Source: a virus
Lineage: Duplodnaviria; Caudoviricetes
DNA length: 64,000 nucleotides
Virus record (IMG/VR): IMGVR_UViG_3300033064_000910
Coordinates: 1-64,000 of that record
Reading direction: 5' to 3' (one strand)
In this document: in pieces, positions 1 to 43,893 of the stretch
Layout of the letters: the number at the start of each line of letters is the position of its first letter
Position numbering within the stretch: position 1 is the stretch's first letter
Notes under the pieces: model-generated
What the model was told of the DNA's origin: nothing
What the model saw: the letters and a program-made list of their open reading frames with translations, nothing else
Database searches by the model: none
Made by a program: the position numbers and the translations under genes

Positions 1-1528
1 TTCCTGAAGTTCCCGATGAACCTTGCACTCCACTTATTCCTGAAGTTCCGCTTGTTCCTGAAGTTCCCGATGTACCGGATGTACCTGAAGTTCCAGAAGT
101 TCCTGATGTACCATTCGAACCGGATGAACCTTGTGCACCGCTTGTTCCAGATGTTCCTGAAGTACCGGAAGTTGCAGATGTACCGGAAGTTCCTGATGTA
201 CCAGAAGTTCCCGAAGTTCCGGATGAACCACTTCCTCCGCCGGCTCCACTTACACCAGAAGTACCAGATGTACCAGAAGTACCAGATGTACCATTAATAC
301 CTGATGTACCAGAAGTTCCCGATGAACCTCCACTACCCGCAGTACCAGTACCTCCACCAGCTCCTGTTAGACCACTAGTACCGGATGTGCCTGAAGTTCC
401 ACTGGTTCCCGAAGTTCCCGATGAACCTCCACTTCCACCGGTACCACTAATTCCTGAACTTCCTGCAGTTCCGGTTGAACCAGATGTTCCCGATGTACCA
501 GAACTTCCTTGTGAACCAGATGTACCCGAAGTACCACTACTTCCATCTGAACCTGAAGTTCCGCTTGTTCCTGAAGTTCCCGATGTACCGGATGTACCAG
601 ATGAACCAGTACTTCCAGATGTTCCGGATGTACCAGATGTTCCCGAAGTTCCTCCTGAACCAGATGTCCCATCAGTTCCACTTGTTCCAGAAGTTCCAGA
701 AGTTCCAGAAGTTCCTCCACTACCAGATGTTCCTGAAGTTCCTGAAGTTCCGGATGTGCCACTAGTCCCTGATGTACCAGATGTACCACTAGTTCCACTA
801 CTTCCTCCACTACCAGATGTTCCTGAAGTTCCTGAAGTGCCCGATGTACCAGAAGTTCCCGATGTACCAGAAGTTCCTTCCGAACCAGTTGTACCAGATG
901 TTCCGGATGTTCCTGATGTACCAGAAGTTGCTGCTGCTGTTTTTATACCAACTTTACCCGTTGATGTGTTATAAACTAATACCTCATCGGTTGTTATATC
1001 TGATTTTAATGAACCAATTCCAAATGATAATGAACCTGTGATACCAACACTTCCAGTAAATTCTTGTTTATCGTTTTGTGCATCACCAAATTTGTTACTT
1101 CCACTTGCGTAGATTATTGATGATGATATATAAATTACTTTTAATTCAGTTGCATTTATTGTACCTGCTACAGTTAAATCAGTATTAACTACTAACCCTC
1201 TATTTGGAGAAATTATTGCGGTTGCCGAACCTGATTTTAATCTATCTAAATCGCCAATTGCTGCTGCATTAATGTTAAACAAACCACCACCATCACCGAT
1301 AAAAAATGAAGAAGTAATTGAACCACTAATTTTTACATTAGAATTTATTTGAATCGAATTTGTTGGTGACCCAATTAAAGATGTTTGTATTCCAGAAGCG
1401 GAAAAATTTGCACCCACATCTATTGAATGAGATGAAAAATTAGCTACACTACTTCCACTTACAAATAAAGAAATTTTATCTTTAGTTTGTTGATTTAAAC
1501 CATTTGGGTTACCACCTAAATATTCCAT
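1..1528 (-). CDS. Gly-Thr-Ser repeat fibre protein, 3'-truncated by the window edge (missing from the ORF track)
   Basis: ATG at 1528 (MEYLGGNPNGLNQQTKDK...). The frame reads through GDGGGLFNI, LKSGSATAIISPNRG and ISSSIIYASGSNKFGDAQNDKQEFTGS modules shared with the 3508-aa and 1000-aa fibres, then enters (GTS)n from about 925 down to position 1; no stop seen in the stretches translated. Confidence 0.9.
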   Translation of the reverse strand, partial: MEYLGGNPNGLNQQTKDKISLFVSGSSVANFSSHSIDVGANFSASGIQTSLIGSPTNSIQINSNVKISGSITSSFFIGDGGGLFNINAAAIGDLDRLKSGSATAIISPNRGLVVNTDLTVAGTINATELKVIYISSSIIYASGSNKFGDAQNDKQEFTGSVGITGSLSFGIGSLKSDITTDEVLVYNTSTGKVGIKTAAATSGTSGTSGTSGTTGSEGTSGTSGTSGTSGTSGTSGTSGSGGSSGTSGTSGTSGTSGTSGTSGTSGTSGSGGTSGTSGTSGTSGTDGTSGSGGTSGTSGTSGTSGSTGSSGTSGTSGTSGTSGTSGSDGSSGTSGTSGSQGSSGTSGTSGSTGTAGSSGISGTGGSGGSSGTSGTSGTSGTSGTSGLTGAGGGTGTAGSGGSSGTSGTSGINGTSGTSGTSGTSGVSGAGGGSGSSGTSGTSGTSGTSGTSATSGTSGTSGTSGAQGSSGSNGTSGTSGTSGTSGTSGTSGTSGTSGISGVQGSSGTSG

Positions 1529-2648: not shown

Positions 2649-2649
2649 A

Positions 2650-14083: not shown

Positions 14084-14103
14084 GCGTTACTTTCCAGCTT
14101 TTT

Positions 14104-14131
14104 TATAAATATCAAAAATCAACTATAAATA
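14104..14131 (-). promoter_or_regulatory. Putative phage late-promoter motif TATTTATA (two copies here; representative of a family across the window)
   Basis: Plus-strand TATAAATA at 2182, 2188, 14104, 14124, 33608, 37066, 38878, 39483, 48626, 56053 and 60535, all intergenic; the copy nearest each minus-strand ATG is 14-44 nt upstream of it. Confidence 0.55.
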
Positions 14132-14151
14132 TTAATAGTAGATATATATCG

Positions 14152-15069
14152 TTATTCGTTTGCACTTTCTAACAAAGAAAGAACCACAGTTAATTGAGAT
14201 GAGCCGGATACTATGAAACCATACGTTTCTTCTAATACCAATTTACCCGAAACTACCGGTGAAAGTGAATCAGCTGCTGGTATTGTCACATTAGTTACCA
14301 ATCTTACAGCTTCTTGTTCAACTAATACAGGAGATTCAATTGTAGTTTTGATAACATCTACTAAAGAATTTACTACATATATAGATGCTGATATTCCTGA
14401 TTGAGTTCCGTTTGTAAATGCACTTAATACTGATTGCGTTACTCCACTTTGAAATAATAATGGAGAAGCATCTGAACCAGTTACCGATTGGTTTTTTATA
14501 ATTTGATTTGATAATACTTTTAAATAATCTAAAGCAAATATAGATGCAGAATATTCAGTAGTATCAATAAGAGATACTCCATTTTTATCAAAATAAGCTT
14601 TTGCTGCTTTGTTTGTTCGGATTGTTGTATTATTAACAATATCATACTTTATTGCATCCACATCATCTAAAGTATTTTGTTCAAAGTAAGATGATATGAA
14701 AGTAAATGGAGTTTCCGATAAACTATTTTGATTTTGAGTATATGCTGCTATTTCTTTTCTTAAAAATTGTCTGTTTGAATTTAGTAATAAAGATGCACTA
14801 GCAAAACTACCACTAAAATTTAGTAAACTTACAGAAGCACTAACAAAAGCACTACCACTATATATGTCACCAAATTCAGGTATAGGTATTTCTTTGTTAG
14901 ATGTTACAAATATAGTTACGGGTTGTGTTACCAAACTATTATTTGTAATTTGACAAGACAATACAATCGATGAAACACCCGCTGGTGTTGTATAGATTTC
15001 ATCAGGTTCTCCAGTCAATCCAACTACTACTGACTGAAACCGATTTAAGGGTACAAAAACTTCTGCCAT
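14152..15069 (-). CDS. Virion adaptor-like protein (305 aa): the 110-aa domain split by an inserted helical (globin-like) repeat
   Basis: N- and C-terminal parts match 1541..1873. The middle LLLNSNRQFLRKEIAAY...DAIKYDIV...ALDYLKVLSNQIIKN resembles the 5016-aa repeat core but lacks the Cys. Confidence 0.75.
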   Translation of the reverse strand: MAEVFVPLNRFQSVVVGLTGEPDEIYTTPAGVSSIVLSCQITNNSLVTQPVTIFVTSNKEIPIPEFGDIYSGSAFVSASVSLLNFSGSFASASLLLNSNRQFLRKEIAAYTQNQNSLSETPFTFISSYFEQNTLDDVDAIKYDIVNNTTIRTNKAAKAYFDKNGVSLIDTTEYSASIFALDYLKVLSNQIIKNQSVTGSDASPLLFQSGVTQSVLSAFTNGTQSGISASIYVVNSLVDVIKTTIESPVLVEQEAVRLVTNVTIPAADSLSPVVSGKLVLEETYGFIVSGSSQLTVVLSLLESANE

Positions 15070-15094
15070 TTTTTTATTTTTTTATTTTCTTTTT

Positions 15095-18000
15095 TTATAT
15101 TTGTAGTGCTAATGAGAACGGAGTTACTAATGAGAATAGAGATTTACTAAATGTTCTACCCACAAGAGTACCAGTTGCCTGATTAATACTTAAACCCGTA
15201 CCAATTCTAAAGTCACCATCCTGATTACCAGATGTGAAGAAGATTCTACCTCCACCCAATTCGGTAATTTCAAATGCCGGGTCTGCAACACCACTACCAC
15301 CCTGATTTGGAGGAAGTGCTTTAAATGTTACACCACTACCATTATAAGAGTAGTCAATACCAGTTGCCACAATTAGAGAACCAAATACTTCTAATGGTGC
15401 TCCAGCTGCTATAAACTCTGCTCTAGTTCTTAGATAACGATTTGTTTCTAATGTTTCTAATAATTGGTCTCTAGTAACAACAACCGCACTTCCGTATTGT
15501 CCATCGTAGTATGAAGATGCTGCTCTAATTCCTCTTTCATTTCCACCATATAATAAATCAGTCACACATGCATCTACAATAAATCCAGTATCACGTGAAC
15601 AACTTGCCTCATTATATACTAAATATGGAAAAGCTCCATTTGTGTATCCGATTGCTCTTTGTTTTAATTCGTCTTTACCGCCTTTTAATCTTTCAGCTGC
15701 TTGTCTTCTCTTAGTTGCAGGTGCTAAATAACTTAATAAAGTATTTGCTACAATTTTTTCAGATATTCCTCTTGCAAAGTTAATACCATCTATCGTTTGC
15801 TTCTTTTGTCCATTATTATCACCATAACTTTCCACAATTGCTACTGATGGGAATTTGTAATAATATGAACCTGCTTCAATACTTCTTTCGTTACCACCAT
15901 AAACTAAGTCAGTTCTGATTGCATCTATAATAAATCCTAAATCTCTACTACAACTTGCTTCATTATATTTCAAATTACTCCAAGAAGAAGATAAGAATGT
16001 TATAGTTTCTTTTTGTATTAATTGTTTATTATCTGTCAACAATTGTGCAGTTGTTAATAAAGAAGCCGATGGTACTAAATAAGTTGGATTGATTATTACC
16101 TTTTTAGATAATTTTCCAGCATATCTGATACCCGTAAGTGTTGGGTCTAATTGATTTTGTGTTGATGGTACACCTTTATTGATTGCGTTAGAAGGATATA
16201 AGTAATAATACTGTCCTGCTATCACACTTCGTTCTTGTCCACCATATAATACATCCGTTGCTGCTGCATCTATTAAATATCCAACATCTCTCTTACAAGT
16301 TGTTTCATTGTAATATACACCACTCCAAGAAGAACTAACATAAGCGATAGTTTCAGCTGCCACAAATGATTTGTTCTTTCTTAATAAATCAAATGATGCT
16401 GATGCCTCTACTGATGCCGTTACGAATAATATATTTTTGGCAATTTTTTGTGCTATTCTACTTGCGTAGTTTATACCATCAATTGTTTGTCCTAATTGTC
16501 CAACACCATCGCCATCTCCCTCTATAATTGCCTTAGATGGATATTTGTAATAGAACTCTCCGTTGAATGAACCTCTTTCATTACCACCATATAATAAGTC
16601 AGTAATAACTCCATCTATAATAAATCCAGTATCTCTCTTACACTTATCTTTATCATATTCAAATGTACTCCAACTAGCAGTTAAGTAAGCTAGGGTTTCA
16701 TTTTGTATAAACTCTCTATTCTTTCTCAACAAATTAACCGATGCTGAAACTATTTGAGATGCTGTCACAAATGTTAATGAAGCCGCAACATTTTTAGAAA
16801 GTTGTCCTGCGTAATTAACACCGGTTAATGTTGCTTGTACTTGCGAACCAGTACCATTTGCCTGAGATGGATATAAATAATAGAATATACCTGCGTATGT
16901 ACTTCTTTCATTTCCACCATATAATAAATCCGTAGAAACTGCATCTATAATATGTCCCACATCTCTCTTACAAGTTGTTTCAACATAAGATGCCGTACTC
17001 CAAGATGATGATAGGTAAGCAATAGTTTCATTTTGTATAAACTCTCTATTCTTTCTAATCAATGCGTATGATGCTGATACATTTGCCGATGCCGTTACAT
17101 AAGTTACGTTTTGTACTATATTTTGTGCTAACTTACTTGCGTAATTGATACCATCTAATGTTTGATTTATTTGTGCTCCTTGCGCCTGTGATGGATATTG
17201 ATAATAGAATATACCATTAAATAATGATGCTGAATTTGCGTTGTATAATAAATCTTCCGCAGAACCACTAAGTATTCCTCTTAAATCACGACCACATTTA
17301 CTTTCATCGTAAGATGCTGTTGACCAAGATGAACTTAAATATGCAATTGATTCCGATACAATGAATCCAATATTTGCTTTTAATAAATTGTATGCGTATA
17401 TTACATTAGTATCAGCCGATGGAGTTACATATGGAATTAAAGTTGGTAATGAACCCGTACCATTTGCTATTATATTTGTTACAATAGAAATAGATGCGGA
17501 TACTTTAGTAGATTCAGCCACAGTTCCAAACAATGATGATGTTACAAGTTGTGTAGCGTTAGTTACTTTAATATTTGCCTGTGTATTAGGTATAACAAGA
17601 GGTGCCGCTATTAATGTACTACTAATAGATGCGGTTGTAAATCTAGCTGCGTACTTAATTGCATCGGTTGTTTGTACCACTTGCGAACCAAATCCATTAG
17701 CTTGTGATGGGAACTGATAATAGTAATCCCCATTATCTCTACTTCTTTCATTTCCACCATAAAGTAAATCAGTTGCTACACCATCAATGATATATCCTAA
17801 ATCTCTATAACATTTACTTTCACTATAATCTAAGTTAGGGTATTTAACGTTTACATATGCAACACTTTCACTTTGTATGAATAGTTTGTTAGCTTTTATT
17901 AAATCGTATGCGTATTGAACTTCCAAAGATGCTGTAAATATCTGCTTATTAACCACTACGTTCATAGCCGTTCCTTTTGCGTATCTTATACCAGTCAATG

Positions 18001-21000
18001 TTGGTTCTAATTGTGCATTTGTAGCTTGAGATGGATAATCATAATAGTATCTACCTGCTACCACACTTCTTTCATTACCACCATATAGTAAATCAGTTGC
18101 TACTGCATCTATAACGTATCCAATATCTCTCTTACAAGTTGTTTCGTTATAATCAAAGTTACTCCAAGAAGAAGATAGATATGCAATTGATTCACTTTGT
18201 ATAAATGCTTTGTTATTTCTTAATGAATTCCAAGATGCCGATGTTGGTTGATTAATTGATGCTGATATGTGTGTGAATACAGTATTCAATACAACCTTTT
18301 CTGCTAATCCACTTGCGTATTTGATTGCCGTAATTGTTTGGTCTAATTGTGAACCGGTAGCGTTTGATGGATAATCGAAATAGAACTTACCATTAAACAA
18401 AGATGCCGAATTACCACCATATAAAAGGTCAAATGCAGAACCACTAAGGATTCCAGTCAAATCTCTTTCACATTTACTTTGTGTATATTCAAACCCACTC
18501 CAAGATGAACTCATATAAGCAATAGTTTCATCAACTATAAATTTAGAGTTACTTATTAATAAGTTATATGCTGAATTTATCTTTGCATTTGAATTTGCTA
18601 TCGGATATGTTGATGGGTTAAACCCAATTGAGCTTGTGCCATTACTTAATAATACATCAATTACCAAAGATAAAGATGATGATATTAATTTACCTTGTAA
18701 TCTTCCAGATGCACTTCCACTTATCAATTGTGGCGTATCGGTTACTTTAATACTTGCTGATGTATTTGATATAATTGTTGGTAGAACCGATGTTCCGTTT
18801 TCAATTACATTTAATATCAAATCAAATCCACTTGCAATCTTATTAGTATCAAAAGATGATGCGGATATTGATTGCTTTATAGGATTTGCATTTGTTACTT
18901 TTAAAGATGATGATGTACTTGCTACTAATGTAGGTAATACACTCAATCCGTTTTTAACAACGTTTACAACAGTACCATAAGAAGAACTTACGTTTGTAAT
19001 TTGAGTTGATAAGTTATATGAACCCGTACCAATTGTTTGCTCTTTAGAACTTATATGTAATAAAGTTGGTGTAGATAATTCAAATCCATAATCATAGTTT
19101 CTTGCTAATGAATCCGGTACAAATGCAACACCTTTTTCAATAATATCAGCTACATGCTTAAATGATGATGTAATAATATCTAATTCAGCTCCACTTGCTG
19201 ATATTGATGATGAGTATTGAGCTGTATTTGTTACTTTAATTAAACTATCTCCATTTTGAACCAATACAGGTATAGTACTTATTGAATTTTTAGTAGTTCT
19301 AATAAATGTATGAGCCGATTGAGGTAAATGTTTAATTGCCCCAGCTGATGCTGATACAAATGTATGTACTGATTGAGGTAAGTGTTGTATAGCGTTTGCT
19401 GATGCCGATACAAATGTATGTATTGAGCCAGAAGCACTTCCAGCATCTCCTACATTAATTGTAAATGTACCAGTTTGTCTTTGTAATCCATTTGCTGTTG
19501 CTGATATAAATGTATGTGCACCAATATAGTTAGATGAACCCACATTGATAGTAAATGTATTCGTTGTTACATTAGATATCTCTAACCATCTTCCAGATGG
19601 GTAATCGTAACCAGGTCTTGGATACGATTTAGAAACACTATAATCATCCAACACACAAGTGTAAGTTAATGAATTGTCAGAAATCTTAATATAATCTCCA
19701 TTACTAAATCCATGTCCTGCTACCGTTAAAGTAACTACTCCCGTTGATGAATTATAAGGAGCGTTAGTTATTGTATGTGATGAAGTACCAACTGAAGTAA
19801 TTACAATTGATTTTCCAGCATATGGGTCACTACCACTTCTTGGGTAACTATGAGTTGTTGCGTTATTGTCTTGGTCACAAGTAAATGCTATTGAAGCACT
19901 TGCTAAAGTAACACTCCTACCAACTCCTAATCCGTGCTGACCAACAGTTACAACCATATCACCTGTTAGGGCGTTGTAGGATGCTGATGTTGGTGTGAAA
20001 TATTTGTTAGCTGCCGATACACCAACGTTAAAAGTTAATGTAGTATCGGTTACAGCGGTAAGTGGAATAGAACGAACTGAATATGGGTCAATACCAAATC
20101 TAGGATAAGATTTAGTAGATTGATTATTATCCATATCACAAGTAAACGCAAATGAACCAGTAGAAAGTACTATACCCTCACCCACACTTAAATTATGAGT
20201 CCCCACAGTGACTACGAAATTACCAGTTGCCGGATTATATGATGCCGATGTTGGAGTAAACTCTACGTTAGGTCCTGATGCTCCAACATTTACAGTTATA
20301 GTATTAGTTGTTACCGATTGTATTTGTAATTTGTTAGAATATGGATATTGTCCAACTCCAGGTAATTTATGTTCCGTTCTGTTACCATCCATTTCACAAG
20401 TGAACACAAATGATTCAGGTCTAATGTAAATACTATTGTATTTTGTCAATGTATGACTTGGTATAGTAATTACAAATTCTCCATCCGCCGGATTGTATGT
20501 TGCGGTAGTTGGTGTAAATGATTTTACCCCATCATTTATAATTCCAGTTACTAAACCAAATGATGAACTAATTTGATTTACTTCAATTATTGATGCTGAT
20601 ATTGATGATGATGTATATTGTGCAGTATTAGTTACTTTAATATTTCCATCAGTATTTGTTGTTAGTGTTGGAGAATTTAATTTAATATTTTGAACGATTG
20701 CTTTAGCAACTGCTTTTGCGTAATCAACACCAGCAACAGTTTCTCTAACTTGCGTACTCTTTGTTGCTAATGATGGATACAAATAATAATATTGTCCAGC
20801 TATAACACTTCTTTGATTTCCACCATAGAAATTATCAGTTATAACTGCATCTAAAATATATCCAACATCACGTCTACACGTTTCTCTTAAATAAACTAAG
20901 TTAGGGAAGAAAGCATCTATGTATTGTACAGTTTCATTTTGTATAAATTTTTTATTCTGTCTTAATAAATTAACTGATGATGTTGTAAATCCAGTTGGTG

Positions 21001-24000
21001 ATATTAATACTTTATTTGCTATTATATTTTCTGCAGTACCAGCTACATATTTTATTCCATCAAGTGTAGGTCCTTTTTGTGTTGCGGCAGTTGGTGAAAC
21101 GGATCCTGTTAGGATTGCTGCCGATGGATATAGGTAATAGTATTCTCCAGCTTTAGAGCTTCTCTCATTACCACCATATACCAAGTCAGTTCTAACAGCA
21201 TCTATAATATGTCCAATATCTCTCTTACAAGTTGTTTCGTTATAATAGAATCCATCACCACCACTCCAAGAAGAAGATAGATAAGCAATTGATTCACTTT
21301 GTATAAACTTCTTATTATCAAGTAATAAATTAAATCCAGTTAATTCAGATGTTGTTGGTGATTGTAATAATAAATTTGCTACAATTTTTTCAGTAATTCC
21401 TTTAGCGTATTTAATACCATCTAAAGTTTGATTTAATTGTCCACCAGTATCACCATCGTTACCCACAGTTGCTAATGAAGGATATAAGTAATAATACTCA
21501 CCGGCTTTAGCTACTCTTTCGTTACCACCATAAAGAATATCAGTTGCTACCGCATCTAATATATAACCAATATCTCTTTTACAAGTAGTTTGGTTATAAC
21601 TGAATGCACTCCAAGAAGAAGATAGATAAGCAATAGTTTCATTTTGTATAAATGCCTTATTATTGAATATCAATTCGTATGCAATAATATTAGAATTAGA
21701 TGCTGATACAAATGTTGAATTTTTTAACACGCTATCGGTTAAATCTTTTGCGTATTTGATTCCACTTAATGTTGGTCCTAATTGAGATGTTGTAGCTTGT
21801 GATGGATATTCATAATAGAATTTTCCAGCATTTATACTTCTCTCATTACCACCATACACTATATCAGTTGTTACCGCATCTAAAATATGTCCTACATCTC
21901 TCTTACAAGTTACTTCATTATAAGATGCTGTACTCCAACTTGCCGAAATATAACTTATAACTTCATTTTGTATAAATGCTCTATTGTTATAAATTAATTC
22001 TTTTGCTTGTAATTTATTTTGTGATACTTTTACGAATGTATTTCCTCTAATAATTTTGAATGCAAGGTTTCTAGCATATTCAATACCTGTTACAGTCTCC
22101 TGTATTTGTGAACCAGTTGCATCGGATGGATATTGATAATAAAATATTCCAGCATTTACAGTTCTTTCATTTCCACCATATAATAAATCGGTAGAAACTG
22201 CATCTATAATATGACCAACATCTCTCTTACAAGTTGTTTCAATATATTGGTGTGTACTCCAAGATGAACTTATATAAGGTATTACTTCATTCTTAATAAG
22301 CTCTTTGTTATTAACCAAAAGAGTATATGCAGTTTGAACTTGCGCCGATTGAGTTACAAATAAAGTATTTAATACTAATTTTTGTGCTAAACGTGATGCG
22401 TATTTAATACCATCTAATGTTTGGTTTAATTGTGCTCCTTGCGCTTGTGATGGGAACTGATAATAAAACTTACCATTGAATACTGATGCTGAATTTGCAT
22501 TGAATATTAAATCTTCAGCCGAACCACTAAGTATTCCTTTTAAATCACGTCTACACTTACTCTCATCATAAGATGCAGTACTCCAAGATGAACTTAAATA
22601 TGCAATACTTTCTGATACTATAAAATCTAAGTTACTTTTTAGTATAGTATAAGCTGCTACTACATTTGAAGATGATATTGATGATGTATATAAAGTTACA
22701 GTTGGTAATGAACCAGTGCCATTTGCTATTATATTTGTTACAATAGAAATAGATGCCGATATTGCGTTAGCTTCAGTTTGTGTTGCCGCGCTTACTCCAA
22801 AATATTGAGTAGCATCAGTTACTTTAATATTTGCACCTGTATTTGGTGTTATTATTATTGGTATAGGAGTTACTGCATTTCTATCAGCTCTTACGAATGT
22901 ATGTGCTGCTTGTGGTAAATGTTTAACTGCTCCAGTTGATGCGGATACAAATGTGTGTACCGATTGTGGTAAGTGTTGTATAGCGTTTGCTGATGCCGAT
23001 ACGAATGTGTGTATAGAACCAGAAGCACTTCCAGCATCTCCTACATTTATTCTAAATATTCCATTTTGTCTTTGTAATCCATTTGCGGTTGCTGATATAA
23101 ATGTATGTGCGCTTGTATATGAAGATGGTCCTACATTGATATTAAATGTATTTGTAGTTACACCTGATATACTTAACCATCTACCACTTGGGTAATCGTA
23201 TCCAGCTCTTGGGTAAGATTTTGAAACTAAATTTTCATCTAATATACAAGTATAAACTAATGAGTTATCCGAAATTTTAATGTAATCACCATTACTAAAT
23301 CCGTGAGATGCTATTGTTATAGTAACATCTCCAGTTTCAGCATTGTAAGGTGCATTTGTTATTGTATGTTGTGTAAATCCAACTGATGTTATCTCAATTG
23401 ATTTTCCAGCATATGGGTCACTACCACTTCTAGGATAACTATGAGTTGTTGCGTTACCATCCTGGTCACAGGTAAACGCTATTGATGAACTTACTAAAAT
23501 AACACTTCTACCAACTCCCAATCCATGCTGCCCAACAGTTACATCCATATCTCCAGTTAGTGCATTGTAATTAACCGCAGATGGTGTAAAGTATTTATTA
23601 GCTGCGGATATTCCAGCATTAACTGTCAATGTAGTATATGTAGTATTTGTTATTTTAAAAGAACGTCCTGCATATGGGTCTATACCAAATCTAGGATAAG
23701 ATTTAGTTGATTGATTATTATCCATATCGCAAGTGAATGCGATTGAACCAGTTGTTATTACAATTCCTTCTCCTATACTTAAAGTGTGCGGTCCAACAGT
23801 CAATACAAAATTACCAGTTGCTGGGTCATAAGTTGCAGCTGTAGGAGTGAAATATACATCAGGACCTGATATACCAACATTTACAGTTATAGTATTAGTT
23901 GTTACTGAAATTATACTTAACCTACTATTATATGCACGCTGTCCAACTGAAGGTAATTTGTGTTCCGTTCTATTACCATCCATTTCACAAGTGAATACAA

Positions 24001-27000
24001 ATGATTCAGGTTTTAAATAAATAAAATCAGATGCTTTATAGCTGTGGTTTGGAATCGTAATTACAAAATTACCATTAGCAGGATTATACGTTGCCGTAGT
24101 TGGTTTAGAACCCGTACCATTTTGTAATATGTTTATAATTGTATCAAAGCTTCCTGATATATGTTTTGCTATTGAAGATGATATAATTACCGAAGATGTA
24201 TATTGATTTGTATTTGTTATTTTTACTAATCCATCAACATTTTTTATTAATGTAGGCAAAGTATCAGTACCATTTTCAACAATATCTAAAACAATATCAA
24301 AACTATTATTTGAAGCCGTAAGATATGTAGATGCTATTGATGCAGTTGTTATATATCTGCTTGTTGCTGTTCTTCTAATTAAAGAATTTACATTTGTTAC
24401 AATAGTTGGAATTGAACCAGTGCCATTTGCTACAATATCAATTACAGTATCAAATCCAGTAGTTACTTTTACTTTTTCAGAAGTATTCGGCGTATTTGAA
24501 GATGTTATTTGTGTACCACCAATAAAGTTTACACCTCTATTTGTATTTTTAAGAATAGTTGTTGGTATTGAACCAGTACCATTTGATACGATATTAAGTA
24601 TATTACCAAATGAAGATGATATAATAGATTTATCAGCTGTTGCTACTGATATTGATGATGTAATTTGTAGAGCAGTAGTTGCTTTGATTCCATCTGCAGT
24701 ATTTAGTACCACAGAAGGTGCAGAATTACTTCCACTTTCAATTACGTTTGCCACAATATCAAAACCATCCTCTATTGATTTTCCACCAATTGCTACTAAC
24801 TTTGCTAAACCTTTTGTGAAGTTTAATGAATCAATTGTTTCTTCAGATTGAACTCCGGTAGCTTGGGATGGATATAAATAATAGAATCTTCCTGCTATTA
24901 CACTTCTTTCATTACCACCATATACTAAATCAGTAATTACAGCATCTACAATAAATCCCGTATCTCTGTAACACTTACTTTCAATATAATCTAAATTAGG
25001 ATATATTTCATTAGCGTAATCAACGGTGTTTTGTTGTAAGAATGCTCTATTTTTTCTTACTAAAGCTGCTGCGTTTGTTATTGCTGAAGATGGTACACTT
25101 AATATATTATTTTTAATTATATTTTGTACTAAACCATTACCATATTCTATACCAGTTATTGTACTATCTAATTGAGAAGTTGCGGATGGTACACCCGCTA
25201 CTATTGCTTTTGATGGATATCTATAATAATATTCGCCGGCAAATCTACTTCTTTCATTTCCACCATATACTAAGTCAGTTCTAACCGCATCTAAAATATA
25301 TTTAATATCCCTTCTACATTTAGTATCATCGTAAGGTGCATCACTCCAAGAAGAACTTACATATTCAACTACTTCGTTTGCAATCAAATCTCTATTCAAT
25401 CTTATTAAGTTACTTGCATTTATTTTATTGCTTTCGGCTTGAATAAATGTTGTATTTAATACTGTCTTTTGTGCTAATCTATTTGCGTAATTAATACCAT
25501 CAATAGTTTGCATTAATTGTGAACCAGTTGCTGCCGAAGGATATGTATAGTAATAGTATGCTGCTACTCTAGTTCTTTCGTTTCCACCATATACCATATC
25601 AGTAATTGCTGCATCTAATATATGTCCTACATCTCTCTTACAAGTTGTTTCGTTATAATCATGCGCAATCCAAGATGATGATAGATATGCTATTGTTTCA
25701 TCTTTAATAAATTGTGTATTATTTCTTAATAATACTTTTGCGTTTGTTACATTAGAAGATGGTGCAGCAAACGGTATATTTTGAATTACTTTTTGTGCCA
25801 AACGTGATGCGTAATTAATTGCATCCAATGTTTGTGCTAATTGCGAATCGTTAGCTTTAGATGGAAACTCTAAATAAAAATTACCATTAAATATAGATGC
25901 AGAATTTGCATTGAATATTAAATCCTCCGCTGAACCACTCAATATACCTGTTAAATCTCTTTTACATTTACTTTCATCATATTCAAATGAAGACCAAGAT
26001 GATGATATGTATGCAATACTTTCTGAAACTATAAATGGTATGTTTAGTTTTAATAAGTTATAAGATGCAATATTAGATGTTGATAATACTGGTGCCGAAT
26101 ATAAAGTAATTGCCGGAGATGCTCCTTCACCAAATTCTATTATTTTTGTTACAATTGAAATAGATGATGATATAAATGCTACATTTTCCAAGCTACCACT
26201 ATACAACGATGATGATACTATTTGAGTTCCAGAAGTTACTTTTATATTTCCGTTTAACGAAGATGTTAATGCTGGTATAACAGATGTTCCATTTATTAAT
26301 ACTCTTTCAACTAAAGCAAATGATGAACTAATACTTGCACTTTCTGCAGTTGTTGCTGCAGAACTTGCTGTAAATACCGTATTAGTAACTTTAATACTTT
26401 GTGATGTATTTAATTTTAATTCTCCTAATGAACCCGTTCCGTTTATTATAATTCTTGCTACTAAAGCGAATGATGATGAAAGTGATGATGTTGCCGAACC
26501 ACTTACAGCAAATGATGCAGTTGTTTGTGTTCCAGTAGTTACTTTAGTTAATCCTACATGTGATGAAGTAAATAAAGGTTCTGCTACTAAACCACCACCA
26601 ATAATAGTATTTACAACATCAAAATTTCTGCCAATTGTAGTTACTTCGTTTGGTGTTGTATTAGATGATGTTATTTGAGAACCAGTGCTTACATTTATTG
26701 GATTGTATTTATTCCAAGTTAATCCAGTATTTTGTGCTAATAAAGATTTAACCGAACTTAATCCTCTTGCTACAATTCCTTCTATAATTGAGAACGTATT
26801 ACCAATAAAAGTTTGCTGCGTTGCCGAACCACTAAATGAAGATGTTGCGTTTGTTAAAGTAGATAATCTAAAGTTCTTTTCATCATTATAAACAATACGT
26901 GGTGTATCTAATATTTGATTTTGAACAATAGTATCTCCAATAATTTTTGCATACTTAACACCAGCAATAGTTGATGTTCTTTGAGTTGTTGTTGCTAAAG

Positions 27001-30000
27001 ATGGATAATCATAATAGTATCTACCAGCAGTTATACCTCTTTCAATTCCACCATATAATAAATCAGTTGCTACATTATCAACAATATACCCAACATCTCT
27101 TTTACAAGTTGCTTGAATATATTTTAAATTTGGAAATGCAACATTAATAAATTGAATTGTTTCGTTTTGAATTAATTCTTTATTATTTATTAAATTATTA
27201 TATGCCGATAATATTGATGCGGTTGGAGCTGTAAATGTTTTTTTCTTTAATAAATTATCAACCAATCCACTTGCGTATCTGATACCATCCGATGTTTGTC
27301 CTAATTGACCAACACCATCTCCATCACCTCTTACGATTGCTAAAGATGGGTATTGATAATAGTATTCACCAGCAATTATACTTCTTTCATTACCACCATA
27401 TTTTGCATCAGTTGCTACTGCATCTAATATATAACCAGTATCACGTCTACATTTTGCTTCGTTATAATAAAAATTAGACCAAGATGATGATAAATAAGTT
27501 ATAACTTCATTTTGTACAAATGTTTTATTATCTCTAATAGTATTCCAAACATCATCTACTTCAGTTGTTGGTTCTGTATATACTTTACCTCTAATTAAAT
27601 TTAATGAAACTCCAGCTGCATGCTTCATAGCAGTTAGCGTTGGTCCTAATTGTGTAGTAGTTGCTTCAGATGGATATTGATAATAAAATAAACCATTTCT
27701 AATACTTTCTTCATTTCCACCAAATAAAAGGTCTTTTGCTACACCATTTACAATATAACCAACATCTCTTTTACAAGTTTCTTCTGGATATGAAAACCCA
27801 CTCCAAGATGATGATACAAATTGTATTACTTCATCTTTGATAAATTCTATGTTACTTACTAATATTTCGTATGCCGTTACAACATCAATACCTGTTTTAG
27901 CTATTGAACCACTTTGTATTGTAGCTGGATATGTTAATGTATTTTTAATTAAGTCAAATGGTGTTGTAGATGAATTTACTATTTCAATCTTACCACCCAT
28001 TAAACTTCTATTCTGCGATACATAATATAATTTGTTTGGTGCGTTATATGGTACTGTAAAGGTTATTGTCCCTCTACTATCGCCATTGTTTACCATACCA
28101 ATATTATAATCATATTTTTCAGTAATACCTTCTAATTGTTCTGTTCTAATCCAAAACGGATATTCGATACCACCAAATATTTCTATTGCATTTACATTAA
28201 ATTTGTAAGTTTCTCCTCTAAATAAAGTTAATGTAGGATTACTACCAAGTCCTTCAAAATCAAATGAAGAACTATTATTATTTGTTATTACAAAAGATTT
28301 TTTATGATTAGCTGGTATTGATAAAATATTACTACCAGTACCATTTGCTAAAATATTATAAACAATACTAAAACTTGCACTTATAGAATTTATTGTTGCT
28401 AAAGATGATGTTACACCCAGCATTATTTGTTCGGTAGTTCCACCCTTTATACTACCACTTGTATTTGCTATGTACGTTGGTTTAACAGAAACGCCTTTTG
28501 TAATAATATTAAGAACCGTTCCAAATGATGAACTAACAGATGCAGTATAGTTTGTTGCAATATTTGTTATTTGCTCAATTACATCAGTACCAATTTGTTT
28601 ACTAGCACTTGTATTTGATTTAAAATTAAATGAACCAGTACCATTTGCTAATATACTTAATAAGGCTGCGTATGATGAACTAATAGTATTTAAATCATGT
28701 TGAGTAGCTGATATAGATGATGTTATTTGCTCTGCTCCTAATATATTATATGGAGAATCAAATCCGTATCCCTTTATAGAACTCTTAGCTAATAGGGTTG
28801 GAAAATTAGTTACACCTTTATCAACTATTTCACTTATTAATGTATAATCAGAAAATATTTCATCTGCTGCAGTAGTTGATAATGTTGTTGTAGCAGATAC
28901 TCTACTTTGTGTATATAATGATGGCGCTGTTATACGAATCCCTTCAGCTGTATTCAATTTTGTTATTGTAGGTAATCCATTTTCTAATCCTTTGTTTAGA
29001 ACATTAACAACACAACTCCAAGTTCCTCTTACACTATCTCTAGCTTGAATATTACCACCACTACCAGAAATAAGACGAGAACCACTAGCGTACATACCAT
29101 ACAAACCAAACGAAATGTTTGAGTTATTTAGGGTAGCTTGTCCGCCATTGTTTACTCTAATTGCATAATATGAGAAGTTATTAAAGAAAGATACCAACTG
29201 AATGAAACCTCTACCATTAACCAAACAACCTACGCCGTTTGGAGAAATTTGAGTGTAAGCATCCAATACCATTGAAGCCAATGGAGAATCGGGATCAATC
29301 ACATCACCATTAACATAAAGACCTCCACCTCCTGGTGGAATATCTTCATAAAGTTCGGTGAATGAATTCTCTTGATTTGAAATTTGAGAACAGTTCTGAA
29401 CATATGGCGAAGTTGTAATAAATGCTCCGGGTTGGAAAGCCACAGCGAATCCTTTTTCAGGATTTATTTGGTCTGGATACAATCTCAATCCTCCCATTGT
29501 TACCTCTGCAATATAACATCCAGCGTTTACTAAGAATAGGTCTTCTGTGGGTGTTTTAGCGTTAATCTTGGTGATACGCAAACCGGCACCCCATATAGTT
29601 GTATTCTTAGGAAGTATCACAGGATTATCCTCTAAATACGTTCCAGCCTGTACTTTAATCACATATCCATTTGATATTGAACCGGTATCGAATCCATATC
29701 TACCATCGTATCCTGGTGCTGCCAATGATGCAGCTCTTTTAATTGTACGAAGTGGAAATTGAATAGTTCTACCATCGTTTGTATCATCACCATCGGTAGA
29801 AGAAACATAAAGAGTAGGTACGTTAGCACCAAAATCTTTTGCAAGAATACCAGCATATCTTTGTGTATCAACTGCTAATATTGAATTGGAAGATGTTACC
29901 GAAAGAATTGTGTTTGGTGCTGCAGTTCTTAATTCCCCATCAATTACCAATGAACCTGTTAAAAATACAGAACCAGTGATTTCACTTTTATCATTTAAAT

Positions 30001-30145
30001 CATTTCCAAAAAAGAAACTCTTAGATACAAACAATGAACCACTTATAATAGCATCTTGTCCAATTTCAACATTTTGTTGTATTGAAAGAGACCCACTAAT
30101 ATTTTGTTGTTCTTCAATTTGTTTACGAGGTATTAATCTTGCCAT
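15095..30145 (-). CDS. Giant virion protein (5016 aa): split pectin-lyase-like beta-helix, 22 CxRD helical repeats, 22 amphipathic helix units, 2 x 4 nested beta domains
   Basis: N-terminal LYVSSTDGDDTNDGRT...PLRTIKRA...IKVQAGTYLE (beta-helix cap), PYVQNCS...SMVLDAYTQ...QLVSFF; C-terminal GGGRIFFTSGNQDGDFRIG; repeats C(K/R)RD(V/I/L/T)G(Y/H/F)IxDAVxTDLLYGGNERS counted by eye. Confidence 0.85.
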   Translation of the reverse strand: MARLIPRKQIEEQQNISGSLSIQQNVEIGQDAIISGSLFVSKSFFFGNDLNDKSEITGSVFLTGSLVIDGELRTAAPNTILSVTSSNSILAVDTQRYAGILAKDFGANVPTLYVSSTDGDDTNDGRTIQFPLRTIKRAASLAAPGYDGRYGFDTGSISNGYVIKVQAGTYLEDNPVILPKNTTIWGAGLRITKINAKTPTEDLFLVNAGCYIAEVTMGGLRLYPDQINPEKGFAVAFQPGAFITTSPYVQNCSQISNQENSFTELYEDIPPGGGGLYVNGDVIDPDSPLASMVLDAYTQISPNGVGCLVNGRGFIQLVSFFNNFSYYAIRVNNGGQATLNNSNISFGLYGMYASGSRLISGSGGNIQARDSVRGTWSCVVNVLNKGLENGLPTITKLNTAEGIRITAPSLYTQSRVSATTTLSTTAADEIFSDYTLISEIVDKGVTNFPTLLAKSSIKGYGFDSPYNILGAEQITSSISATQHDLNTISSSYAALLSILANGTGSFNFKSNTSASKQIGTDVIEQITNIATNYTASVSSSFGTVLNIITKGVSVKPTYIANTSGSIKGGTTEQIMLGVTSSLATINSISASFSIVYNILANGTGSNILSIPANHKKSFVITNNNSSSFDFEGLGSNPTLTLFRGETYKFNVNAIEIFGGIEYPFWIRTEQLEGITEKYDYNIGMVNNGDSRGTITFTVPYNAPNKLYYVSQNRSLMGGKIEIVNSSTTPFDLIKNTLTYPATIQSGSIAKTGIDVVTAYEILVSNIEFIKDEVIQFVSSSWSGFSYPEETCKRDVGYIVNGVAKDLLFGGNEESIRNGLFYYQYPSEATTTQLGPTLTAMKHAAGVSLNLIRGKVYTEPTTEVDDVWNTIRDNKTFVQNEVITYLSSSWSNFYYNEAKCRRDTGYILDAVATDAKYGGNERSIIAGEYYYQYPSLAIVRGDGDGVGQLGQTSDGIRYASGLVDNLLKKKTFTAPTASILSAYNNLINNKELIQNETIQFINVAFPNLKYIQATCKRDVGYIVDNVATDLLYGGIERGITAGRYYYDYPSLATTTQRTSTIAGVKYAKIIGDTIVQNQILDTPRIVYNDEKNFRLSTLTNATSSFSGSATQQTFIGNTFSIIEGIVARGLSSVKSLLAQNTGLTWNKYNPINVSTGSQITSSNTTPNEVTTIGRNFDVVNTIIGGGLVAEPLFTSSHVGLTKVTTGTQTTASFAVSGSATSSLSSSFALVARIIINGTGSLGELKLNTSQSIKVTNTVFTASSAATTAESASISSSFALVERVLINGTSVIPALTSSLNGNIKVTSGTQIVSSSLYSGSLENVAFISSSISIVTKIIEFGEGASPAITLYSAPVLSTSNIASYNLLKLNIPFIVSESIAYISSSWSSFEYDESKCKRDLTGILSGSAEDLIFNANSASIFNGNFYLEFPSKANDSQLAQTLDAINYASRLAQKVIQNIPFAAPSSNVTNAKVLLRNNTQFIKDETIAYLSSSWIAHDYNETTCKRDVGHILDAAITDMVYGGNERTRVAAYYYYTYPSAATGSQLMQTIDGINYANRLAQKTVLNTTFIQAESNKINASNLIRLNRDLIANEVVEYVSSSWSDAPYDDTKCRRDIKYILDAVRTDLVYGGNERSRFAGEYYYRYPSKAIVAGVPSATSQLDSTITGIEYGNGLVQNIIKNNILSVPSSAITNAAALVRKNRAFLQQNTVDYANEIYPNLDYIESKCYRDTGFIVDAVITDLVYGGNERSVIAGRFYYLYPSQATGVQSEETIDSLNFTKGLAKLVAIGGKSIEDGFDIVANVIESGSNSAPSVVLNTADGIKATTALQITSSISVATADKSIISSSFGNILNIVSNGTGSIPTTILKNTNRGVNFIGGTQITSSNTPNTSEKVKVTTGFDTVIDIVANGTGSIPTIVTNVNSLIRRTATSRYITTASIASTYLTASNNSFDIVLDIVENGTDTLPTLIKNVDGLVKITNTNQYTSSVIISSSIAKHISGSFDTIINILQNGTGSKPTTATYNPANGNFVITIPNHSYKASDFIYLKPESFVFTCEMDGNRTEHKLPSVGQRAYNSRLSIISVTTNTITVNVGISGPDVYFTPTAATYDPATGNFVLTVGPHTLSIGEGIVITTGSIAFTCDMDNNQSTKSYPRFGIDPYAGRSFKITNTTYTTLTVNAGISAANKYFTPSAVNYNALTGDMDVTVGQHGLGVGRSVILVSSSIAFTCDQDGNATTHSYPRSGSDPYAGKSIEITSVGFTQHTITNAPYNAETGDVTITIASHGFSNGDYIKISDNSLVYTCILDENLVSKSYPRAGYDYPSGRWLSISGVTTNTFNINVGPSSYTSAHTFISATANGLQRQNGIFRINVGDAGSASGSIHTFVSASANAIQHLPQSVHTFVSASTGAVKHLPQAAHTFVRADRNAVTPIPIIITPNTGANIKVTDATQYFGVSAATQTEANAISASISIVTNIIANGTGSLPTVTLYTSSISSSNVVAAYTILKSNLDFIVSESIAYLSSSWSTASYDESKCRRDLKGILSGSAEDLIFNANSASVFNGKFYYQFPSQAQGAQLNQTLDGIKYASRLAQKLVLNTLFVTQSAQVQTAYTLLVNNKELIKNEVIPYISSSWSTHQYIETTCKRDVGHIIDAVSTDLLYGGNERTVNAGIFYYQYPSDATGSQIQETVTGIEYARNLAFKIIRGNTFVKVSQNKLQAKELIYNNRAFIQNEVISYISASWSTASYNEVTCKRDVGHILDAVTTDIVYGGNERSINAGKFYYEYPSQATTSQLGPTLSGIKYAKDLTDSVLKNSTFVSASNSNIIAYELIFNNKAFIQNETIAYLSSSWSAFSYNQTTCKRDIGYILDAVATDILYGGNERVAKAGEYYYLYPSLATVGNDGDTGGQLNQTLDGIKYAKGITEKIVANLLLQSPTTSELTGFNLLLDNKKFIQSESIAYLSSSWSGGDGFYYNETTCKRDIGHIIDAVRTDLVYGGNERSSKAGEYYYLYPSAAILTGSVSPTAATQKGPTLDGIKYVAGTAENIIANKVLISPTGFTTSSVNLLRQNKKFIQNETVQYIDAFFPNLVYLRETCRRDVGYILDAVITDNFYGGNQRSVIAGQYYYLYPSLATKSTQVRETVAGVDYAKAVAKAIVQNIKLNSPTLTTNTDGNIKVTNTAQYTSSSISASIIEVNQISSSFGLVTGIINDGVKSFTPTTATYNPADGEFVITIPSHTLTKYNSIYIRPESFVFTCEMDGNRTEHKLPGVGQYPYSNKLQIQSVTTNTITVNVGASGPNVEFTPTSASYNPATGNFVVTVGTHNLSVGEGIVLSTGSFAFTCDMDNNQSTKSYPRFGIDPYSVRSIPLTAVTDTTLTFNVGVSAANKYFTPTSASYNALTGDMVVTVGQHGLGVGRSVTLASASIAFTCDQDNNATTHSYPRSGSDPYAGKSIVITSVGTSSHTITNAPYNSSTGVVTLTVAGHGFSNGDYIKISDNSLTYTCVLDDYSVSKSYPRPGYDYPSGRWLEISNVTTNTFTINVGSSNYIGAHTFISATANGLQRQTGTFTINVGDAGSASGSIHTFVSASANAIQHLPQSVHTFVSASAGAIKHLPQSAHTFIRTTKNSISTIPVLVQNGDSLIKVTNTAQYSSSISASGAELDIITSSFKHVADIIEKGVAFVPDSLARNYDYGFELSTPTLLHISSKEQTIGTGSYNLSTQITNVSSSYGTVVNVVKNGLSVLPTLVASTSSSLKVTNANPIKQSISASSFDTNKIASGFDLILNVIENGTSVLPTIISNTSASIKVTDTPQLISGSASGRLQGKLISSSLSLVIDVLLSNGTSSIGFNPSTYPIANSNAKINSAYNLLISNSKFIVDETIAYMSSSWSGFEYTQSKCERDLTGILSGSAFDLLYGGNSASLFNGKFYFDYPSNATGSQLDQTITAIKYASGLAEKVVLNTVFTHISASINQPTSASWNSLRNNKAFIQSESIAYLSSSWSNFDYNETTCKRDIGYVIDAVATDLLYGGNERSVVAGRYYYDYPSQATNAQLEPTLTGIRYAKGTAMNVVVNKQIFTASLEVQYAYDLIKANKLFIQSESVAYVNVKYPNLDYSESKCYRDLGYIIDGVATDLLYGGNERSRDNGDYYYQFPSQANGFGSQVVQTTDAIKYAARFTTASISSTLIAAPLVIPNTQANIKVTNATQLVTSSLFGTVAESTKVSASISIVTNIIANGTGSLPTLIPYVTPSADTNVIYAYNLLKANIGFIVSESIAYLSSSWSTASYDESKCGRDLRGILSGSAEDLLYNANSASLFNGIFYYQYPSQAQGAQINQTLDGINYASKLAQNIVQNVTYVTASANVSASYALIRKNREFIQNETIAYLSSSWSTASYVETTCKRDVGHIIDAVSTDLLYGGNERSTYAGIFYYLYPSQANGTGSQVQATLTGVNYAGQLSKNVAASLTFVTASQIVSASVNLLRKNREFIQNETLAYLTASWSTFEYDKDKCKRDTGFIIDGVITDLLYGGNERGSFNGEFYYKYPSKAIIEGDGDGVGQLGQTIDGINYASRIAQKIAKNILFVTASVEASASFDLLRKNKSFVAAETIAYVSSSWSGVYYNETTCKRDVGYLIDAAATDVLYGGQERSVIAGQYYYLYPSNAINKGVPSTQNQLDPTLTGIRYAGKLSKKVIINPTYLVPSASLLTTAQLLTDNKQLIQKETITFLSSSWSNLKYNEASCSRDLGFIIDAIRTDLVYGGNERSIEAGSYYYKFPSVAIVESYGDNNGQKKQTIDGINFARGISEKIVANTLLSYLAPATKRRQAAERLKGGKDELKQRAIGYTNGAFPYLVYNEASCSRDTGFIVDACVTDLLYGGNERGIRAASSYYDGQYGSAVVVTRDQLLETLETNRYLRTRAEFIAAGAPLEVFGSLIVATGIDYSYNGSGVTFKALPPNQGGSGVADPAFEITELGGGRIFFTSGNQDGDFRIGTGLSINQATGTLVGRTFSKSLFSLVTPFSLALQI

Positions 30146-39604: not shown

Positions 39605-41260
39605 TTAGATAGCATTTAAATCTTTGATGTAGATTTTTCCATAATATTCCGGTCTGACCATCTTCTTAGCGTATCTAGTCATCACCCCGCGTCTTGGAGT
39701 GAAATTTTGAGGGTCATACACTAATGGAGTCATAATCAATGGTACATATGGAGCGTAAACAGCACCAGTCTCTAAGAAGTTGTTACCTCTATAACCCATC
39801 AAGATTTCGTTAGAAGTCATGTAAGGGTTTTTGTAAACTGTGTATCTATTGCTCATAGAACCTACTGCAGTAACACCAGCTGCGAATTGAGCTGCGTCTT
39901 TATCTGCATTTACTGTGAATCCAGGAATTGATTCCAAAATAGTACAAACATCTGGAGAAGCAACTACGAAGTTAGCTCCACCTCTAAGTGTCAATTGATG
40001 AATCTTGTTAGAAACTTTGTTCAATTTGATACCTAATGTTTGAAACCATGCATTCTTAGTGTATGCGTTAGAAGCACCACCGATGTTACCCCAAGCGTTT
40101 TGACCTGATGTACCATTGTTTAGGTATTCTTCACCTACAGTTGTAGACCAATATTCAGTTGTTAAAGCGTTTGATTTTAACATATCTAAGATTTCTAAAT
40201 CAATCTCTAAAGAGATATAATCAGATAACATAGAAGTTAATTCAGCTTCTGCATCAATTGAATGGTAAGCGTTCAAATCTTGTGCTAATTCAGGAGTCCA
40301 TACTGCTTTCAACTTACGAGTCTTAGCAACGATAGCCTCTGATTTCAATTCTAAGTCGATTTCAGGAATATCTAATGCAGTTGTTGTGTTACCAGCAGAG
40401 TTTGCAGTTGAATCTTCGAAATCACCTCTGTCATAAGCAACAGGTACTTCAGAATAGATAACGTCAAGATGACCACCAGCTAATGCCAATGAAGATGCAG
40501 ATACATATAATGCAACGTTAGTACCAGATACATAACTAAATTGACCTAAAGTACTTACAATTCCAAAACCTGCAGTTGCGTGTCCTTTCTGAACTTGGAA
40601 GCTTCTTACAGCTTCAGTATCAGCAGTTGCTGAAATGTTAGCTTTAGTTACAATGAATTTAACAATTTTACTAGCTGCTACAGAAGCTGAGTAAGCTTGG
40701 TCATATCCTAAATCAGCCCATGTTGCAGATGCTGAAGTGATATTTGCTGGTGCTACCGATGCAGTTGCATCATTTACTGAATAGCCATAACGTCCTTCAC
40801 CATAAAGACCGTTTGAAGCTGCGTCAGTTCTACCGAAGTTAGTAGCTGAACCAGTTGCGTTAGTACCACCAAAAAGTGATTTACCACCGAACTGTCCTGC
40901 TCCACCTTGTGCAGAACCATATTTGAAGTCTAAGAAGAAGATAAGACCTGAAGGTAAGTTCATAGGTTGTACACTTACGAATTCCTTAGATGCGATTTCT
41001 CCGAAGATTCTTCTTACTAATGGTAAAGCAACACCAGACCATTCTTCTGATCCTGATGATGTACCTGTTTGAGTTGCCTCATCCAACAATTGTTTTGCTT
41101 GGTTCTCTAATAGAACTGCCATAGAGTGTTGGTCTCTTTCTTTCATACCTTCTAGAAGACCTGTTTTCTCCCATTTGCTTTTCAATTGACGTGTTTCAGC
41201 CAACATTACTGCTTGTGGGTTCTTGCCTTCCATAAGTTTACTTAAATCAAAATTTGCCAT
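39605..41260 (-). CDS. gp23: Major capsid protein, T4 gp23-like
   Basis: VSVQPMNLPSGLIFFLDFKY; KTRKLKAVWTPELAQDLNAYHSIDAEAELTSMLSDYISLEIDLEIL; YAPYVPL...FTPRRGVMTRYA. Confidence 0.97.
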   Translation of the reverse strand: MANFDLSKLMEGKNPQAVMLAETRQLKSKWEKTGLLEGMKERDQHSMAVLLENQAKQLLDEATQTGTSSGSEEWSGVALPLVRRIFGEIASKEFVSVQPMNLPSGLIFFLDFKYGSAQGGAGQFGGKSLFGGTNATGSATNFGRTDAASNGLYGEGRYGYSVNDATASVAPANITSASATWADLGYDQAYSASVAASKIVKFIVTKANISATADTEAVRSFQVQKGHATAGFGIVSTLGQFSYVSGTNVALYVSASSLALAGGHLDVIYSEVPVAYDRGDFEDSTANSAGNTTTALDIPEIDLELKSEAIVAKTRKLKAVWTPELAQDLNAYHSIDAEAELTSMLSDYISLEIDLEILDMLKSNALTTEYWSTTVGEEYLNNGTSGQNAWGNIGGASNAYTKNAWFQTLGIKLNKVSNKIHQLTLRGGANFVVASPDVCTILESIPGFTVNADKDAAQFAAGVTAVGSMSNRYTVYKNPYMTSNEILMGYRGNNFLETGAVYAPYVPLIMTPLVYDPQNFTPRRGVMTRYAKKMVRPEYYGKIYIKDLNAI

Positions 41261-43878: not shown

Positions 43879-43881
43879 ATG

Positions 43882-43893
43882 CAAATATACGAA
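43882..43893 (-). promoter_or_regulatory. Bacteroidota-type -7 promoter element (TTCGTATATTTG, contains TAnnTTTG)
   Basis: Identical 12-mer also at 60227..60238; both lie directly upstream of accessory enzyme genes. Confidence 0.65.

Follow-up and report, generated by a model that had tools for sequence, protein, structure and literature searches.

Results

The window analysed here, a 64,000-nucleotide stretch of the virus record IMGVR_UViG_3300033064_000910 (Duplodnaviria; Caudoviricetes), carries on its minus strand an ORF at positions 15095-30145 that encodes a protein of 5016 residues (P0001 in our set). The gene lies in a phage structural module, whose other members include a major head protein, a head-tail adaptor, collagen-like tail-fibre proteins and a second giant ORF of 3508 aa. 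PHROG profiles for giant tail-fibre and virion structural proteins (phrog_5342, phrog_4527 and phrog_701) matched its repeats and termini with E values of 4e-129, 2.9e-71 and 1.2e-61, placing it among these proteins, whereas Pfam gave only a sub-threshold Phycobilisome (PF00502) hit. The closest cultured relatives are T4-like Synechococcus phages, at 21-34% identity over the cores, and more than 340 close relatives come from metagenomes. The protein is organized as follows, where C denotes a core with a CxRD motif and H a smaller helix-containing unit:

29036..30145 (-), N-terminal part of the split beta-helix anchor domain (residues 1-370)
28328..29032 (-), H block 1: helix-only H1 (about residues 372-390) plus H2-H5 (397-606)
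27971..28312 (-), cupredoxin-like / baseplate-connector-like beta domain (residues 612-725), a lateral insert (phrog_677, E 6.6e-15)
26909..27901 (-), core block 1: C1-C3
26108..26896 (-), H block 2: H6-H10
24779..26089 (-), core block 2: C4-C7
24098..24781 (-), H block 3, first part: helix-only H11 plus H12-H15
22853..24097 (-), beta-rich insert 1 (residues 2017-2431), four roughly 88-aa repeats followed by four short HTFVSA-type strands, between H15 and H16 (phrog_1276)
22700..22852 (-), H16, a turn-type H unit (62 bits)
20675..22681 (-), core block 3: C8-C13
20516..20662 (-), H17
19265..20515 (-), beta-rich insert 2 (residues 3211-3627), between H17 and H18
18626..19264 (-), H18-H21
17609..18601 (-), core block 4: C14-C16
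17438..17593 (-), H22, the single H unit of the small side hairpin (61 bits)
15398..17422 (-), core block 5: C17-C22, with C17 as the turn core and C18-C22 as the proposed partners of the leftover units H18, H17, H6, H2 and H1
15098..15397 (-), C-terminal part of the split beta-helix anchor domain (last 100 residues; C-termini of phrog_3442 and phrog_17885)

A regular expression and an HMM each found exactly 22 CxRD cores of 108-115 residues, with their Cys residues at positions 791, 899, 1014; 1394, 1502, 1610, 1725; 2531-3090; 3892, 4004, 4112; and 4284-4849, that is, in blocks of 3, 4, 6, 3 and 6. The H element, which the sequence-only reading had described as an amphipathic helix of the type ISSSFxxVxxIIxNG, was found to be larger: it is a 51-residue tandem unit comprising a short IKVT-type strand, a loop and a 20-residue amphipathic helix ending in NG-TGS-LP. 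An HMM refined on homologs detected 20 full units plus one helix-only unit after C7 (1789-1810), the latter at a borderline 9.0 bits. The 22nd unit is a helix-only segment directly after the beta-helix; the HMM does not score it in this protein, but the segment is present in all 123 full-length homologs and is scored in 55 of them. A helix-only HMM and a helix regular expression, meant to count H units more objectively, were too insensitive, the latter finding 10 of 22 in this protein. With the two marginal units included, the order H5 C3 H5 C4 H6 C6 H5 C3 H1 C6 and the running count 5,2,7,3,9,3,8,5,6,0, read as opening and closing brackets, are correct. The subtype rules proposed from the sequence also held: the four GILSGSA-type cores (1394, 2531, 3892 and 4284) each follow an ISxSISIV / ISSSLSLV-type H unit, and the last core of every block has (F/Y)P(N/Y)LxY in place of SSSW. 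Thus, the observation made by the sequence-only reading was confirmed, although it had left out the two roughly 415-aa beta-rich inserts, lying between H units, and the cupredoxin-like domain.

Unequal numbers of H units and cores among homologs had been named in advance as a result that would refute the bracket model, and we therefore counted both units with HMMs in every homolog retrieved. All strongly unequal proteins turned out to be ORFs truncated at contig ends. Among 123 full-length proteins with 4 to 28 cores, 110 had H = C, and eleven differed by one, always where the borderline helix-only H11 was missed. Of 33 distinct architectures 27 were balanced, whereas permutation of the totals gave 2.8 on average and never more than 11 in 10,000 trials. 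The two units thus keep a one-to-one stoichiometry across relatives, and the balance is far beyond chance. At a 4-bit cutoff the running count became negative in 2 of the 123 proteins; in the final count it did so in 12, and in 11 of these it fell by one unit only at the final core, these being the same proteins in which H11 was missed. The thresholds were chosen by us, one unit is counted by rule, and recombination can move a whole block, so that the number of independent events is smaller than the number of proteins. Block offsets were conserved while block sizes changed; block 2 occurs as H4C3, H5C4, H6C5, H7C6 and H8C7. In 103 proteins the last block occurs only as (H0,C5), (1,6), (2,7) or (3,8), the relatives having 0, 1, 2 or 3 units at the position of H22, each time with a matching change in core number. 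There, the extra H and the extra core are not adjacent, so each step needs two indels. Most telling, the surplus of cores in the last block (2, 3 or 5) always equals the number of H units left over from earlier blocks, in subfamilies with two, three, five or six blocks, as closure of outer brackets predicts. A sign test on a tree of the terminal domains gave 11-12 independent pairs, all concordant, but we do not lean on it because the H and C changes in the last block lie in one cassette of roughly 1 kb that recombination can move as a unit. A mutual-information or DCA test of H-core contacts was not run, as there are too few effective sequences and it is confounded by block duplication and mosaic recombination. 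The position of the beta-rich inserts also differed between homologs.

A search for shorter relatives of the N-terminal 280 residues identified proteins of 441-905 aa with no cores and no H units, such as P0226, P0198 and P0206. In these, the part matching residues about 110-362 is followed after only 70-180 residues by the part matching the last 100 residues. In P0226 (441 aa), for example, the N-part 63-278 matches residues 111-362 of the query and the C-part 350-440 matches its last 100 aa, and the same holds in about 15 further proteins of 552-905 aa. In the window protein the same two parts are about 4550 residues apart. The whole array is therefore an insertion into one domain, and the chain must return to its start. 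A 1086-aa relative, P0181, carries a single H4 C4 hairpin at this site.

The H-first nested order is a feature of the close family. In a more distant subfamily (P0223 and P0229, about 35% identity in the anchor) cores and H-like helices alternate and begin with a core, inside a different loop of the beta-helix. By eye the counts are 5:5 and 3:3, but our HMM and regular expression were too insensitive to confirm them; one-to-one stoichiometry may nevertheless be general.

Two segments were folded with AlphaFold2. Model 1 comprised H6-H10 plus C4-C7 (717 aa, with a 43-row alignment) and was compact, with a mean pLDDT of 79.9 and a pTM of 0.74, which is too high for nine independent beads. H6, which under the bracket model has no partner core in this construct, had pLDDT below 50 and is disordered, whereas everything from the H7 helix onward scored 85-96. 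DSSP showed isolated bridges only at the strands of H8, H9 and H10 (117, 168-169 and 218) and at the three inter-core linkers (377, 485-486 and 600). Model 2 was a homolog segment without the beta inserts, H17-H21 C14-C16 H22 C17-C19, with six H units and six cores in 1000 aa. Its mean pLDDT was 85.9 and its pTM 0.73; all six H units scored 75-94, and there were five two-residue H-strand bridges and five linker bridges.

Alignments of both models against 48,161 PDB representatives were used as an indirect read-out of pairing, since atomic contacts were not inspected. Nearly all of the nine hits at Z 8 or more were phycobiliproteins or related bilin-binding domains (Z 8.1-10.1), the VIA alignments to phycobiliproteins reaching Z 9.6-10.1 at rmsd 2.3-2.9 A over 103-116 residues. 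Their model ranges start at the beginning of an H unit and end at the end of a non-adjacent core: 109..714 (H8 + C7), 214..495 (H21 + C15, skipping C14) and 52..992 (H18 + C19, across two hairpins). Other hits spanned 53..877 (H18 + C18), 18..994 (H17 + C19) and 135..600 (H19 + C16), while first-type cores aligned on their own, at 263..379 and 654..771. So, in the models, an H unit and a core up to about 780 residues away, across two complete hairpins, form one globin-like domain; the first core of a block is the turn, each H unit sits at the boundary of two cores, and the three-way junction predicted by the bracket string is reproduced. However, pairing is inferred from pLDDT, pTM, DSSP bridges, which do not name partners, and the first and last residues of the alignments, and AlphaFold2 could pair any free H unit with any free core; the models thus favour, but leave undecided, whether the two pieces meet in three dimensions. 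Likewise, for helical domains a Z under about 13 may reflect only a common arrangement, and as these are models and not structures, the alignments leave it undecided whether the modules have a globin-type fold with an N-terminal extension. A Foldseek search of the PDB with the 717-aa model returned only meaningless helical-transporter rows, none at E <= 0.001.

By sequence, the protein did not qualify as a member of PF00502. The best score, on a 1000-aa piece, was 18.3 bits against a gathering cut-off of 22.2, with E values of 0.002-0.08 overall; only 1 of 22 single cores gave a hit, at E 0.077, and a profile of the 22 cores against PDB sequences found no phycobiliprotein or globin (best E 0.3, unrelated), although precomputed PF00502 hits exist on several homologs. 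The CxRD motif is invariant in 22/22 cores, but is lost in many cores of some relatives (2 of 11 in P0173). It sits where the Pfam match puts the region of the bilin-binding Cys (core positions 40-102 on profile 73-135), resembling the Cys84-x-Arg-Asp site of phycobiliproteins. There is no evidence of a chromophore, whose covalent attachment was not assayed here.

Discussion

The sequence-only reading had proposed that each core is completed in cis by a distant H helix, taken as the missing globin helix H, so that the chain runs out and back like RNA secondary structure and gives a dendritic protein with five tips, inserted into a split beta-helix. Our data support this interpretation only in part. 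The comparative data and the AlphaFold2 models support antiparallel pairing in cis of H units with distant cores, nested and branched pairing, and insertion of the whole array into a split beta-helix domain. Identification of the H unit as globin helix H was not supported, and we reject it. The last helix of the reference proteins is never matched (alignments end at residues 127-153 of 149-184), so the cores do look one helix short, as had been supposed; but sequential alignments place the H unit on the N-terminal (X/Y/A) side of phycobiliproteins. In addition, in p091 of the cultured phage S-PM2 an H-like helix lies directly upstream of each CxRD core. We therefore read the H unit as the N-terminal piece of the module, without assigning its helix to an exact site. 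The register also differs from a simple one-to-one bracket, and the terms 'five tips' and 'dendritic' follow from the bracket string and one modelled junction only.

We consider the best explanation, to which we give a probability of roughly 0.6, to be a virion appendage whose conserved anchor is one right-handed beta-helix-type domain, with about 4550 residues inserted into a loop of it. In this view the insert is built from one kind of two-piece module, an N-terminal 51-residue H unit and a 108-115-residue four/five-helix CxRD core with a phycobiliprotein/globin-like fold, the two pieces being separated by further complete modules nested between them. The chain would lay down a run of H units, turn at a special first-type core and come back as a run of cores that zip antiparallel onto the H units, with the H strand pairing with the linker before a core and the H helix packing on that core and touching its neighbour. 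H units left unpaired at the base of one hairpin would be closed later by the surplus cores at the C-terminus, giving stems, three junctions and five hairpin tips and returning the chain to the beta-helix. Of this picture, the counts, their conservation and the split anchor were demonstrated by the analysis; the H-core contacts and one junction exist only in models; and it is an inference that the ladder serves as a rigid scaffold of adjustable length (4 to 28 modules in relatives), displaying laterally inserted beta domains for contact with the host surface. The beta-rich inserts would sit as bulges in the H strand, which together with their variable position fits lateral display modules. That this is a host-contact fibre rests on PHROG names and gene context only. 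It should also be borne in mind that equality at exactly 22 = 22 needs the two helix-only units, and that truly independent origins of the balanced changes in the last block may be few. The evidence is computational throughout.

Other explanations are less likely but not excluded. The protein might be a chain of separate hairpins, in which each run of cores zips back onto the H units just before it while H1, H2, H6, H17 and H18 and the last five cores do not pair with each other. Local pairing is indeed the best-supported part, from model 1 and the block offsets, and distal pairing rests on one model in which the only free partners were the ones that paired. Nevertheless, we regard this alternative as unlikely, since the surplus of cores in the last block equals the summed leftover H units in every balanced architecture, the N- and C-terminal parts must meet to form one domain, and model 2 places H18 with C18/C19 at high confidence. 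Pairing in trans, in a domain-swapped oligomer, seems less likely still. Phage fibres are commonly oligomers, usually trimers, and only monomer models were run, the oligomeric state being unknown; H units of one chain would then complement cores of another, and the balance would reflect stoichiometry between chains, not a cis tree. However, a running count that almost never goes negative and conserved per-block offsets are what cis hairpins require and are not needed for trans pairing, the run lengths are not palindromic as an antiparallel dimer would need, and the monomer models are already compact.

Least likely among these alternatives, and the one against which the count data argue most strongly, is the absence of any pairing, with H and core arrays as independent tandem-repeat rods in series, equal numbers as a by-product of duplication history and the AlphaFold2 packing as an artefact. 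Tandem repeats expand and contract easily, several blocks look like duplicates of each other (they share first- and last-core subtypes), and the Foldseek search of the PDB found nothing. On the other hand, independent arrays should drift to unequal numbers, yet balance is kept over a 4-28 range, and the extra H and the extra C are non-adjacent. Moreover, an H helix alone has no hydrophobic core, yet it is predicted at pLDDT 85-95 only when a partner core is in the construct.

With respect to known systems, the predicted fold of an H unit plus a core aligns best to phycobiliproteins (phycoerythrin, allophycocyanin, the ApcE bilin domain) and sensor globins, in two independent models. It differs from them in its failure of sequence membership, in the unmatched last helix, and in being split, with other domains nested inside it, and repeated 22 times in one chain of a virion protein. 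The giant tail fiber / virion structural proteins of T4-like cyanophages, such as S-PM2 p091, share the CxRD cores and H-like helices, are annotated as virion proteins and gave structural hits in BFVD reaching E 2e-9. In S-PM2 p091, however, helix and core form contiguous 131-aa tandem units with only five cores, and there are no separate H and C arrays and no nesting. Discontinuous domains made by domain insertion, of which the beta-helix anchor is a clear case, are interrupted by another domain that folds independently before the chain returns to finish the first, and known cases are one to a few levels deep; here the same module would be nested recursively (running count up to 9) and would also branch, under a grammar conserved while copy number varies from 4 to 28. 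In out-and-back fibre tips such as the T4 long-tail-fibre needle, which was not compared directly, the chain also runs to a tip and returns antiparallel, but these are short trimeric beta structures with one turn, as opposed to a helical ladder of globin-like modules with several turns and junctions. Our literature searches on phycobiliprotein-like phage virion proteins and on nested domain insertion found nothing relevant, and to our knowledge this repeat-protein layout has not been described.

A more speculative possibility, which we consider improbable but which would be of great interest if true, is that each invariant Cys-x-Arg-Asp site of such a branched tree of 22 split phycobiliprotein-like domains carries a bilin. 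The phage virion would then bear a pigmented, antenna-like or light-sensing appendage, giving a role to the bilin-synthesis genes that cyanophages carry. The phycobiliprotein-like fold predicted for a cyanophage-type virion protein with this motif is a separate, testable lead.

In summary, known repeat proteins are linear (solenoids, rods or beads on a string), whereas this family appears to place the two halves of a repeated domain as opening and closing brackets, the balance being kept by selection while copy number ranges from 4 to 28. If confirmed by a structure, this would be a new class of repeat architecture, namely recursive and branched domain nesting. It raises a sharp folding problem, because the first H unit would wait for a partner made about 4,600 residues later. 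It also gives a rule that can be checked on any new homolog, and a minimal relative, P0181, suited to structural work. Furthermore, balanced gain and loss of H units and cores would explain how phages can grow or shrink a huge appendage without breaking either the modules or the anchor domain.

The following features of the window accompany the giant gene or lie within it:
3557-14083 (-), a second giant ORF of 3508 aa
14152-15069 (-), a 305-aa ORF just downstream of the giant gene
19265-20515 (-), a beta-rich insert of roughly 415 aa within the giant gene
22853-24097 (-), a beta-rich insert of roughly 415 aa within the giant gene
39605-41260, the major head protein gene
42556-43884 (-), a DNA methyltransferase-like ORF

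The second giant ORF, especially at positions 4000-8000, has a GC-rich stretch (0.44-0.46 against about 0.32 elsewhere), and the long overlapping plus-strand ORFs found there suggest a simple Gly-rich repeat tract. The DNA methyltransferase-like ORF (phrog_498, E 5e-62) sits among the structural genes, next to the major head protein gene. The 305-aa ORF showed one weak match to the core HMM (residues 90-200, 21.7 bits), whereas no other ORF in the window had matches to the cores or to the H units.

The 3338-aa protein p091 of Synechococcus phage S-PM2, annotated as a tail fiber protein (L008, the S-PM2 sequence, 6922-16938, +), has five CxRD cores. The last four are spaced exactly 131 aa apart, and three of them (1151, 1282, 1413) have an H-like helix directly before the core. 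Of note, a match to the C-terminal domain of the window protein lies in the middle of p091 (1810-1877, E 1.4e-8). In addition, the two AlphaFold2 models (mca74cffe3423 and m550edd4c966b) gave a weak structural match of an H unit plus core to a 973-aa protein of the cyanophage A4 pre-ejectosome (9k3a_A; Z 5.4-5.7, 115 residues).

Even though some full-length relatives keep the cores as judged by HMM, they have lost the CxRD motif in many of them; the motif was retained in 2 of 11 cores in P0173, 6 of 11 in P0142, 7 of 11 in P0139 and 8 of 12 in P0174. This result implies that the motif is not needed for the fold. The beta-rich insert, which comprises four repeats followed by four short HTFVSA-type strands, itself a 4+4 pattern, sits between different H units in different homologs. 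It lies between H8 and H9 in the homologs L003 and L006, and between H15 and H16 and between H17 and H18 in the window protein, while it is absent in the homologs L001, L002 and L005. The insert behaves as a movable module.
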